Shown: positions 30,001-33,000 of the stretch, in pieces
Layout of the letters: each line of letters begins with the position of its first letter
Position numbering within the stretch: the stretch's first letter is position 1
DNA from: a virus
Lineage: Duplodnaviria > Heunggongvirae > Uroviricota > Caudoviricetes
Length of the DNA: 64,000 bases
Direction: 5' to 3' (one strand)
Virus record (IMG/VR): IMGVR_UViG_2913112809_000002
Program-made: the position numbers

Positions 30001-33000
30001 CAGGTTGATGAGTAAATCTGTTTCTGCGCGATCAACGTCGCGCTGTGATAGTTTGCTGCAGCTTGTTTGTTCCATTTCTTACTATTTCCATAGGTAAATA
30101 ATCACTAATACCCATCTTTCGATGAGCGCTTAATTAGTTACCGCGTTGTCGGCGGTGCAGATTGATAAAGAGCGGTGTTACTTATGCAGCCAGAAGGTTC
30201 TTTTTGCTTATTTCAAGCATTTCGCTTGCTTGATATTTGCCACCAGAAATCTCTTCGATTTTTGATGCGTATTTAGTTTTCCCAAAAAACTCAGTCTTAG
30301 GGAGGAAGCCGTTTTTGAGCCACTTATAGACAGCCCTTTCGCTAACTCCACAAGCCTTCGCAACTTCAGGGATGCCGACACCTTTAATCGGCTCATCAAG
30401 ATTTTGCATAGGAATATCCTTTTTCGTACTTTCAGTACGCATTATGATTGAACTGAAAGTTTTTGCAAGTGCTTTAGTATCGTACTCATGGTTCAGAATG
30501 AAAAAGTGCGCAAAGAATTCGCCCAGCGGCTAGCGCAAGCCTGTAAAGAAGCTGGTCTTGATGAACATGGTAGGGGGATGGCCATAGCCCGTGCCCTTTC
30601 TCTTTCGTCCAAAGGCGTTAGCAAATGGTTTAATGCTGAGTCTTTACCGCGTCAGGAAAAAATGAATGCGCTTGCGAAATTTCTAAACGTTGATGTTGTT
30701 TGGCTTCAGCACGGCACTTCGTTAAATGGAGCGAATGATGAAGATACTCTTTCATTTGTTGGCAAATTAAAAAAAGGGTTAGTGCGCGTGGTTGGTGAGG
30801 CAATTCTTGGTGTTGATGGTGCCATCGAGATGACCGAAGAGCGCGATGGGTGGCTCAAAATTTATAGCGATGATCCTGATGCCTTTGGTCTTCGTGTGAA
30901 AGGAGACAGCATGTGGCCCAGAATAAAATCAGGAGAATATGTACTCATTGAGCCTAACACCAAAGTATTCCCGGGTGATGAGGTGTTTGTCAGAACCATC
31001 GAAGGACACAACATGATCAAGGTTCTTGGCTATGACAGAGATGGAGAATACCAATTTACAAGCATCAACCAGGACCACAGACCAATAACGTTGCCTTATC
31101 ATCAAGTAGCCAAAGTGGAGTATGTGGCTGGTATTCTGAAGCAATCTCGCCATCTGGATGACATCGAGGCAAGGGAGTGGCTGAGAGATTCCTGACATCA
31201 AAGTCATAGAGTGAGTTTTCTAGTTAGAAATAGTGGTCAATGGGTACGCGTAGGTAAACCGTTTAAACATAATAAACAAGCCATATAAGATGAAATAAAT
31301 CATGAGCGATAAAGAGTTTAAAGTACTTAATTTTGATGACTTTGCTCATTATTTGAGCACATTGAACGGCGAACAAATTTGTCCAATGTGTATGGAAGAG
31401 TCATGGACGCTTTTCACCCCAAACAAGCTTCCTCCAGAAGACGAGGATAGGTATGTAATAAGTTCTATCCCAGGATCACTTATTTCAAGTAAAAGACCTG
31501 AAAAATCAAATCTCTTCTTCAGAAGTTACAACAACGATGTCCTCCTGATGCAATGCAGAAATTGTGGATACATGGCATTTTTTAATTATAAAAAAGTCCA
31601 AGAAAACCTTGAGTCAGGGGATTATATAAAAAAAAGAAGATATAGATATGGTGGATGAAAATGACAAATCAGAAGACTGATTTCTTCCGTCCAATGGAGT
31701 ATGATAACAAATATGAGCAATTTGGTGTTATAGAAGCACACAGGAATGGTCGCTCTACTCCGTCATATCAGCCAGGCACCATTGGTAAGGATATCCCGGT
31801 TATTATTGCGCATAAGTTAAGCGATCAACCAGCAGAGGGTGAGTCACAGATGAGCGTAAAATCACTGTCACGTTGGGAGTTTTGGCTAGGGATTTTCACT
31901 GCCATTATTGGGATATTTTCCATTGTTGTAGGAGCAACGTGGACAATTTCTAATAATATCAATGATAAGATTAATGCATCAAGACAAGAGCTAACTGGGA
32001 ACATCCAATCCAGTCGAGCAGAAATCACGGCAAGAATTGACAGGCTCGAAGATAAGATGGAGTCTAATTTCAAAGAAACATCATCGAGCCTGTTCAAAAT
32101 ACAGGCAATTCTAGAAGCAAAATCCGACAAAGAAAAATAAGAAAGTCCGGCCTCAGCGCCGGGTTTTCTTTGCCTCACGTTCCCCACACCTAATAACACA
32201 TTAACCAATTGTATTTATTGAAAAATTGATAGATACAACTTGCTAAACCACGAAATTCTGATCCCTGCCGCATAACCTTCATCCGCAACATTTACAAAAA
32301 TAAATTTCCTTATATATCAAAATCATATTTCGTAGAGTTAATAAACCACAAAAATTTCGTACCAATAGTTCTTGATAATGTCGAACTATTGGTTCATTAT
32401 TATCGCCATCAGCAGGAAGCTGGAAGCCAAACGGAACAGATTGGCATGCTCTTTAACTTCGATGGGGCGCTGACAAAGCGCAAACAGATACCAAACGAGA
32501 TGGGTTTGGCGGTGATGTGAATTGCAGCTGCAACGACAGCAACCAGAAGATCAGCATCTGGCGCATCACCACCAAAGCCATTTCACATGAGGAAAACATC
32601 ATGACGGTAATCGTGTACGGAAAATCAACATTTGCAGGAAATGCCAAAACTCGCCGTCATGAGCGGCGCAGAAAGCTTGCTATTGAGCGTGATGCTATCT
32701 GTAACATCATTGATTCTATCTTCGGCACAGATAGTGAGGAACCTGTTCAGGAGGCCCCAAGAAAGCGTTTAAGCCTTTCTGAAAAAGCAATATCACTCGG
32801 AAGCCTTCGCTGCAAGAAGGCAGAAGAAGTCGAGCGTAAACAGAACCGTATTTACTACAGCAAGCCACGCAGTGAAATGGGTGTGACCTGTGTCGGTCGC
32901 CAGAAAATGAAATTAGGCAGCAAACCACTTATTTGAGGACTGATACATGAGAGTAAAAACTATGGGCGCAAGCCCATTAAGCGGTCGTATTTTTCAAGGA

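Follow-up and report, generated by a model that had tools for sequence, protein, structure and literature searches.

A repressor-linked gene pair encoding a zinc-ribbon-like protein and a single-pass membrane protein, a candidate anti-phage module of Enterobacterales prophages

A gene pair in the repressor operon

The 64 kb stretch of Caudoviricetes DNA analysed here (IMG/VR record IMGVR_UViG_2913112809_000002; hereafter the window, whose positions number the cassette and its surroundings throughout) carries two small genes, g1 and g2, directly downstream of the cI-type lysogeny repressor gene of an E. coli prophage. They lie inside the repressor operon, in the slot that holds rexA and rexB in phage lambda, and encode a zinc-ribbon-like protein (g1) and a single-pass membrane protein (g2). 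We hold with high confidence that they are a real lysogen-expressed accessory pair, and their position and architecture suggest that they are probably a new lysogen-expressed anti-phage module. The elements of the operon are the following, where aa stands for amino acids and ORF for open reading frame.

31302–31658, + strand: g1, zinc-ribbon-like protein (from the ORF list; phrog_4293; four invariant cysteines)
31655–32140, + strand: g2, single-pass membrane protein (from the ORF list; phrog_24865; one transmembrane span)
30488–31195, + strand: cI-type lysogeny repressor, 235 aa (Pfam HTH_3, E-value 1.2e-5; Peptidase_S24, 3.8e-16)
31196–31301, + strand: spacer between cI and g1 (folding z = -0.48; 61 of 200 shuffled sequences fold equally well)
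32139–32171, + strand: intrinsic terminator, tImm homologue and end of the cI operon (hairpin at 32139–32170 with a U-tract)

The order in the window is cI, g1, g2, a tImm-like terminator, a PL-like promoter and N, to be compared with cI, rexA, rexB, oL and N in lambda. A sequence-only reading of this DNA had described two co-oriented genes right after cI, in the rexAB position and followed by their own intrinsic terminator, and this description was borne out in each respect, both ORFs being recovered on the + strand at the coordinates listed above. The terminator hairpin has a folding energy of -16.1 kcal/mol (z = -3.1), which was equalled in 0 of 200 shuffled sequences, and positions 32142–32200 match the annotated Timm of phage mEp332 and about 100 lambdoid and Stx phages. 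In mEp332, Timm was annotated by its likeness to the putative terminator for the lambda pRM, pRE and pLit transcripts, and the gene order is cI, a 345-aa gene of unknown function, Timm, oL3-oL1/pL, nutL and N. The guanine-cytosine (GC) content, earlier put at about 36%, is indeed low, within the lowest 0.9% of same-size windows, but the value for the cassette is 38.0% (g1 35.3%, g2 39.9%), against 46% in cI and 50.9% across the whole window. This atypically low GC content marks the cassette as foreign cargo.

The spacer between cI and g1 contains neither a + strand sigma-70 match nor a terminator. The anatomy of the locus thus points to read-through from PRM/PRE across the spacer into the cassette, and cI, g1 and g2 are presumably co-transcribed. 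A promoter belonging to the cassette itself was considered and dropped, none being predicted there. The sole sigma-70-like match on the + strand between 30000 and 33000 (TTGATA-17-CATTAT, 32372–32400) lies between the terminator and N, where PL is expected.

A small family, strictly paired and linked to repressors

A word-indexed search of 5.8 billion proteins returned 5 clusters for g1 (12 when a profile was used; clusters at 90% identity) and 11 clusters for g2. HMMER, run exhaustively over 1.84 billion representatives, gave 62 g2 relatives at E ≤ 1e-3, of which the 27 examined in sequence are 148–177 aa long and have a common layout. Named sources comprise Escherichia, E. albertii, Citrobacter, Enterobacter, Edwardsiella and Yersinia, every named member thus belonging to Enterobacterales.

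A g1 homologue lies directly 5' of g2, overlapping or abutting it, in 35 of 35 related loci, and profile scoring of the loci collected first placed g1 immediately upstream of g2 on the same strand in all 28; the counted loci are partly redundant and amount to about 12–14 distinct lineages. The pairing extends to distant loci (L034–L039), in which g2 is only 21–27% identical, and the distant g2 members P0042, P0035, P0040 and P0050 are each preceded by a 110–124-aa protein with all four cysteines. The most distant pair (L039, 397–1704; g2 21% identical) has a 110-aa g1 counterpart with the pattern CPAC...CLSCG, and the repressor in this locus is a 142-aa protein with a helix-turn-helix (HTH) domain only, which resembles the window cI at its N-terminus and is without an S24 domain.

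Wherever upstream sequence exists, the gene preceding the pair encodes a lysogeny repressor, and at least 10 repressor types are represented. They include S24 repressors of 214/216, 222, 225, 226, 230, 235, 236, 246 and 255 aa, along with the HTH-only protein of 142 aa. In the lambdoid contexts with downstream genes called, N or other early-left genes come next. The pair is also found behind the Arc-fold repressor Mnt, in the immI region, in the P22-like phage N7 (Lederbergvirus), in HZ41 and in six IMG/VR contigs. The order there is mnt, g1, g2, a 106-aa ORF with a transmembrane segment and a gene-16 homologue, and the corresponding stretch of P22 comprises mnt, orf59a and sieA. Two distinct 'maintenance of lysogeny' transcripts have therefore captured one and the same pair. 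The third ORF of N7 (L001, MH717096.1, 5922–6242) has an N-terminal hydrophobic segment and no Pfam or NCBIfam match, and it may be another lysogen-expressed membrane protein.

For pairs of sequences with unsaturated synonymous divergence (dS), the ratio of nonsynonymous to synonymous substitution rates (dN/dS) was 0.08–0.45 for g1 and 0.12–0.38 for g2. Values in the range of about 0.1–0.45 indicate purifying selection of a relatively relaxed kind, and the possibility that g1 and g2 are chance ORFs was rejected on the grounds of conservation and dN/dS.

Exchange of cargo in the repressor slot

The region from cI to N, in which rexAB and bstA are found, is highly mosaic and a documented hotspot for defence genes expressed by the lysogen, and few promoters are as active in lysogens as that of the repressor (PMC8585504). 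Flanks matching those of the window (the 235-aa cI, cII, cro and N) enclose a different gene pair in Stx2a-converting phages. In one of them (LC616032.1, L029), the flanks equal window positions 29800–31195 and 32140–32936, and the cargo at 1959–3305 consists of a DUF3024 protein of 113 aa (2.4e-31) and a NYN protein of 285 aa, a candidate nuclease-type defence or toxin-antitoxin pair. In phage H-19B (AF034975.3, L031), about 1.5 kb between cI and a tImm-like terminator, which is common to the window, is unannotated in the record; at 1148–2490 we found a HigB toxin (PF09907, 4.5e-30), an overlapping HTH_3 protein and a 93-aa ORF. The slot carries rexAB in lambda and a 345-aa protein of unknown function (gene 04) in mEp332. 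Flanks that are in some cases identical around different cargo show that cassettes are exchanged, and the combination of variable cargo between conserved flanks, a GC content of 38% against 46–51% and a shared tImm is that of moron cargo.

Comparison with known systems

Lambda RexAB, which excludes T4 rII and other phages by depolarising the membrane, resembles g1-g2 in its slot between cI and tImm/OL, its orientation with cI, its use (presumed for g1-g2) of the repressor transcript, the combination of one soluble with one membrane protein, and its nature as lysogen-expressed cargo of atypical composition. The proteins themselves are unrelated in sequence to g1 and g2: RexA has 279 aa and no zinc ribbon, and RexB has 144 aa and is polytopic, with about four transmembrane spans, as opposed to the single span and coiled coil of g2. 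The gene sizes are also reversed, the soluble protein being the small one and the membrane protein the larger one here, and no internal promoter like the PLIT of lambda is predicted in the cassette. A division of labour between a cytoplasmic and a membrane protein is reportedly also found in the prophage-expressed defence proteins gp30 and gp31 of mycobacteriophage Butters, an actinobacterial phage with presumably unrelated sequences, in which gp31 is said to be polytopic. P22 SieA has about 160 aa and is made in the lysogen as a protein of the inner membrane, as g2 is predicted to be, and N7-type pairs sit between mnt and the gene-16 homologue, in the place of orf59a and sieA; the window copy lies in the immC (cI) region and the N7- and HZ41-type copies in immI, as does P22 SieA. 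Unlike g2, SieA acts alone; it is predicted to cross the membrane 3–4 times and has the motif FxRYPxEAxxFNK on the cytoplasmic side (PMC10883804). BstA of Salmonella phage BTP1 occupies the same kind of niche, directly 3' of cI and ending at a terminator, but it is a single, unrelated cytoplasmic protein that localises to sites of phage replication (PMC8585504).

Searches with g1 and g2, as single sequences and as whole alignments, gave nothing significant against Pfam, PADLOC v2 (whose database includes candidate systems up to 2023) and NCBIfam. PADLOC returned no hit for g1 and, for the window g2, only '2TM effector' at E = 0.012. The matches in PHROGs were confined to families of unknown function (g1 to phrog_4293, 7.9e-15; g2 to phrog_24865, 1.2e-17, over its C-terminal half), and a profile search of PDB sequences gave none below E = 0.04. 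Toxin or antitoxin domains were not found in either protein with Pfam and NCBIfam. Direct comparison with RexA, RexB, SieA, SieB, orf59a, Rz and mEp332 gene 04 revealed no similarity. Against RexA, BLASTP and the family profile gave best E-values of 39–80 and 0.43 in a database of seven sequences, and RexB and SieB (192 aa) produced no significant alignment to the family. By sequence comparison, then, g1-g2 is not a member of the RexAB, SieA or SieB families. The sequence-only reading had recognised in the two proteins neither RexA, RexB or SieB nor any named defence protein, and the database, direct and Foldseek comparisons agree with it, none having returned a characterised relative.

At the nucleotide level, megablast searches of 5,426 complete E. 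coli genomes and 50,697 phage records left the whole of 31200–32200 unmatched except for the terminator segment 32142–32200. A scan of GTDB representative genomes with g2 patterns detected no relative, and tblastn against 72,556 plasmid records gave no match to the pair. In the literature, no paper on g1 or g2 was found. Among the entries listed in the DefensePredictor supplements (42 validated E. coli systems), no peptide string matched, and none of the validated transmembrane or coiled-coil proteins listed has the g2 layout.

Two further assignments for g2 were considered and discarded. The XhlA/holin family (PF10779) gave no hit with the window protein and matched 3 of 34 homologues (best 2.7e-4), beside other coiled-coil families. 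An i-spanin of the Rz kind has a similar shape, but the locus is the wrong one, there is no similarity and no Rz1 partner is present. A possible lead, to be distinguished from a finding, is TIGR04402, the 'mobilome CxxCx(11)CxxC protein', which 3 of 34 g2 homologues match weakly over the transmembrane span and coiled coil (best E = 0.041). These matches are not significant and lie far below the cutoff of 70 bits (window g2: E = 0.062, 13.5 bits, aa 65–149 to profile positions 47–123 of 180). Going by its name, this family presumably has an N-terminal CxxC...CxxC, in which case it could be a fused counterpart of g1 and g2.

The g1 protein and its frameshifted tail

The g1 protein of the window has 118 aa, with CPMC at aa 27–30 and CRNC at aa 85–88. 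The two CxxC pairs noted earlier are therefore present, and their four cysteines are invariant in every aligned homologue, including the most distant one. The layout consists of a helix (aa 11–20), CPxC with a conserved W-x-L strand, a variable loop, the motif MQCxNCG(Y/F)..F(F/L)NY, a further helix and a tail. The loop (aa 41–78) has a median identity of 32% and holds a conserved IPG, and the C-terminal tail is acidic in nearly all homologues and poorly conserved. Similarity to Pfam zinc-ribbon families was below threshold (best 0.014). AlphaFold2 models from 6 and 12 sequences reached predicted local distance difference test (pLDDT) scores of 51.5 and 58.8, respectively; strands are placed around both knuckles in the second, and only the segments flanking the knuckles come to about 70. 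Foldseek searches of PDB and BFVD with the model returned TFIIS, Rpb9, NrdR, a phage 'MqsA' and Lar, none of them significant. All are generic zinc ribbons (E ≥ 0.04) and say nothing specific about g1.

The end of g1 is altered in this copy by an indel, seen by alignment to three E. coli draft contigs of about 99% identity.

31628–31635, + strand: A8 homopolymer, a +1 insertion relative to the A7 of 8 relatives, by which the last 14 codons of g1 are frameshifted

All 8 close relatives compared have A7. Their g1 has 125 aa and ends in ...GDYIKKEDIDMVDENDKSED, whereas the window g1 ends in ...GDYIKKRRYRYGG, the acidic tail of the family, EDIDMVDENDKSED, having been replaced by RRYRYGG. The family norm is a g1 of about 125 aa that overlaps g2 by 11–32 nt, and by roughly 20 nt in the normal form of this gene. 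It is the extra A that gives rise to both the length of 118 aa and the ATGA overlap of stop and start codons, which are peculiar to this window. Thus, of the earlier description of a 118-aa g1 with a translationally coupled g2, the ORFs and their positions hold, and the length and ATGA overlap do not describe the family. The extra A could be a mutation, a homopolymer sequencing error or the mark of a slippage-prone site.

It is conceivable, if doubtful, that this copy is defective or decaying through loss of the acidic tail, or that the extra A is a sequencing error. The contrast between A8 here and A7 in 8 of 8 close relatives, the exchange of the end residues and the acidic tails of nearly all homologues speak for such a view. 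The change, however, affects only the last 14 residues and leaves the zinc-ribbon core intact, N7-type homologues have much shorter tails anyway, and g2 is intact and 99% identical to its relatives. In any case, this view bears on the state of the copy in the window and leaves the function of the family untouched.

The g2 protein

The g2 ORF encodes 161 aa. Its homologues are called from the second ATG (31661; MTNQK..., 159 aa), which is probably the start in the window too. The earlier assignment of one transmembrane helix and a C-terminal coiled coil was confirmed, with a single hydrophobic span and heptad-like spacing behind it.

31880–31945, + strand: transmembrane segment of g2, about aa 76–97 (best 19-residue Kyte-Doolittle window aa 76–94, mean 2.27)
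31946–32119, + strand: coiled coil of g2, about aa 98–155, its most conserved part and predicted to be periplasmic

Each of the 34 family members has a single transmembrane span and no second candidate. Behind it, a 3-4-4 or 7-residue hydrophobic periodicity continues to about aa 155. Median identity is 45% in the coiled coil and 19% in the N-tail of about 70 aa, and W96, I102, R110, E112, D129 and K134 are nearly invariant across the family. Lysines and arginines in the 15-residue flanks of the span total 81 on the N side against 47 on the C side, and the N-tail is charged, 70 residues long and without a signal peptide. This charge bias, together with the charged N-tail free of a signal peptide, favours an N-in/C-out topology, which would place the coiled coil in the periplasm. 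Most members also have a short aliphatic run about 20–25 residues N-terminal of the span, which might, speculatively, be a g1-binding element.

Proposed function and alternative explanations

An anti-phage role of some kind has, in our estimate, somewhat better than an even chance of being correct, its chief support being the slot itself, that is, guilt by position. For the mechanism, we tentatively prefer two-component abortive infection of a Rex-like kind, with a sensor and an effector. A sensor/effector or toxin-antitoxin-like arrangement is favoured by the strict pairing, the overlapping ORFs and the conserved transmembrane span and coiled coil, set beside the variability of the g1 loop and tail and of the g2 N-tail; the latter contrast is what one would expect of a conserved effector whose surface for recognition or interaction varies, and the occurrence of a soluble and a membrane partner in every locus likewise favours a two-component design. 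Under this proposal, g1-g2 would be a mobile two-gene 'moron' riding the repressor transcript (PRM/PRE, cI, g1, g2, tImm), so that the lysogen would produce both proteins until induction shuts them off. The g1 product would be a cytoplasmic zinc-ribbon protein, and g2 an inner-membrane protein with its variable N-tail of about 70 aa in the cytoplasm and a transmembrane helix running into a coiled coil of about 60 residues, which probably oligomerises on the periplasmic side. Binding of g1 to the cytoplasmic tail of g2 would hold the latter inactive. Superinfection would supply a signal, received at the variable loop or the acidic tail of g1, that releases or activates g2, which may then assemble via its transmembrane span and coiled coil, compromise the membrane and stop the infection. 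Topology, transcription with cI, g1-g2 binding, anti-phage activity and the abortive outcome are all conditional elements of this scheme.

Several observations weigh against it. The g1 allele of the window is frameshifted; the family is tiny (12 g1 clusters and 62 g2 representatives), with named members in Enterobacterales only; and the g1 model, at a pLDDT of 58.8, says nothing about a ligand. A single span with a polar coiled coil is not an established pore-forming design, a periplasmic coiled coil would be at least as much at home in an entry blocker or a binder of the host envelope, and a conserved host target could equally account for the strong conservation of the predicted periplasmic domain. 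Across the family, matches in PADLOC are at the level of noise of the coiled-coil or transmembrane kind (LeoBC, best 1.2e-4 in 11 of 34 members; '2TM effector', 0.002–0.012).

The explanation that comes nearest, and that fits nearly as well as the abortive model while remaining unlikely in itself, is superinfection exclusion through a block of entry, in the manner of SieA, Sie2009 or T4 Imm. The periplasmic stalk of g2 would obstruct the DNA-delivery conduit or a host inner-membrane component, with g1 stabilising or positioning g2 from the cytoplasm, so that the incoming DNA stays out and the cell survives. SieA, a small protein of the inner membrane, blocks injection (PMC10883804), and the pair sits in the sieA slot of P22 in P22-like phages. 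The charge bias in favour of a periplasmic conserved domain agrees with an entry block, as does the finding that the coiled coil, which might bind a conserved feature of the host or the conduit, is the most conserved part, and neither protein has an enzymatic domain. Known blockers are, however, single proteins, which leaves an obligate cytoplasmic zinc-ribbon partner (35 of 35 loci) unexplained; g2 has one transmembrane span as opposed to the 3–4 of SieA, shows no similarity to it and lacks FxRYPxEAxxFNK (PMC10883804); and one module serves both lambdoid and short-tailed P22-like phages, whose own routes of entry differ. Slightly less probable again is a function outside defence, in lysogenic conversion or housekeeping, with the pair acting as a modulator of the envelope or of stress, or as an anti-sigma-like regulator of induction or of the lysis-lysogeny decision. 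Co-transcription with the repressor speaks only to expression in the lysogen and is silent on purpose, a bitopic protein with a zinc-binding partner resembles membrane-anchored signalling pairs (1 of 34 members has a weak NCBIfam anti-sigma match, 0.021), and no PADLOC defence model was matched significantly. Yet all characterised or recognisable cargo of the slot is of the defence or toxin-antitoxin kind (rexAB, bstA, the HigB type and NYN; PMC8585504), and the movement of the module among unrelated repressors and between cI and mnt operons argues against a role in any single circuit.

We consider it improbable that the pair is a selfish addiction module that stabilises the prophage and excludes no phage, with g2 as a membrane toxin and g1 as a labile antitoxin. 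The small overlapping genes with the soluble protein encoded first, the HigB-type toxin-antitoxin pair of H-19B in the same slot, and the precedent of MqsA as a zinc-ribbon antitoxin (a BFVD 'MqsA' being among the non-significant fold matches of g1) are compatible with addiction. Against this stand the lack of similarity to any toxin or antitoxin family, the expectation that loss of expression at induction would poison the phage's own lytic cycle unless countered, and the failure to match any of the plasmid records searched, where addiction modules are common. Least probable of all is a trans-membrane surveillance device of an undescribed kind, in which the g2 stalk would sense the phage conduit or damage to the envelope, outside the cytoplasm and before DNA entry, and the g2 tail would relay the signal to g1, which might respond, for example, with a nucleic-acid-directed block, collapse of the membrane or escape of the prophage.

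Lysogen-expressed accessory or defence cargo on a repressor transcript is well known, and what is new here is the parts; an unknown cassette in this slot would not surprise a specialist. If the abortive model, or another anti-phage reading, is correct, the pair would add a new two-protein architecture, a zinc-ribbon protein with a single-pass coiled-coil protein, to the repressor-linked prophage defences such as RexAB. The unusually clean synteny behind at least 10 unrelated repressors and Mnt makes it a well-justified and cheap candidate for cloning, and the cI-to-tImm interval lends itself to systematic mining for defence genes. In practical terms, the small size of the family and the restriction of its named members to Enterobacterales prophages keep the impact limited.

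Control regions and other features of the window

The remaining features around the cassette are as follows.

30410–30487, no strand assigned: cro/cI control region, candidate operator OR with promoters PRM and PR (TTTCGTAC half-sites, operator-like; 15-bp palindrome CGTACTTTCAGTACG)
32320–32400, + strand: candidate operator OL and promoter PL region (TTGATA-17-CATTAT; TTTCGTAC/TTTCGTAG motifs)
32601–32936, + strand: N antiterminator of the P22 gp24 type, the first gene in the early-left operon (PF25694, 6.2e-26; arginine-rich motif)

A Cro-like gene lies divergent from cI, and the same 235-aa cI allele was found in E. coli drafts and Stx2a phages. The motif TTTCGTAC, including the palindrome CGTACTTTCAGTACG, recurs at 30424–30439 and 30480–30485 in the cro/cI intergenic region and at 32357–32362, just 5' of the PL-like promoter; TCGTAC is found at 30424, 30480 and 32357 and has 9 occurrences in total in the 64 kb. 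These recurring sites are likely to be operator half-sites of this immunity type. The assignment of promoters and operators in 30410–30487 is putative, and that of OL/PL at 32320–32400 is suggested by the maps of mEp332 and lambda; mapping operators through a repeat search was uninformative.

Towards the ends of the window, positions 1–3000 match myovirus-type baseplate and tail-fibre genes, and 61000–64000 match E. coli prophage genes for a lambda-like tape measure and minor tail proteins. Paired tRNA genes lie at 22853–23008 (- strand) and at 43475–43628 (+ strand). The window is thus likely to cover two prophages, or one prophage and part of its neighbour, with a tRNA pair in each. Inside the O-like replication gene (28533–29480, - strand), a repetitive segment rich in His, Ala and Glu extends from about 28900 to 29080, with mirror-image repetitive ORFs on the opposite strand, and looks like an iteron-bearing origin within the O gene, as in lambda.

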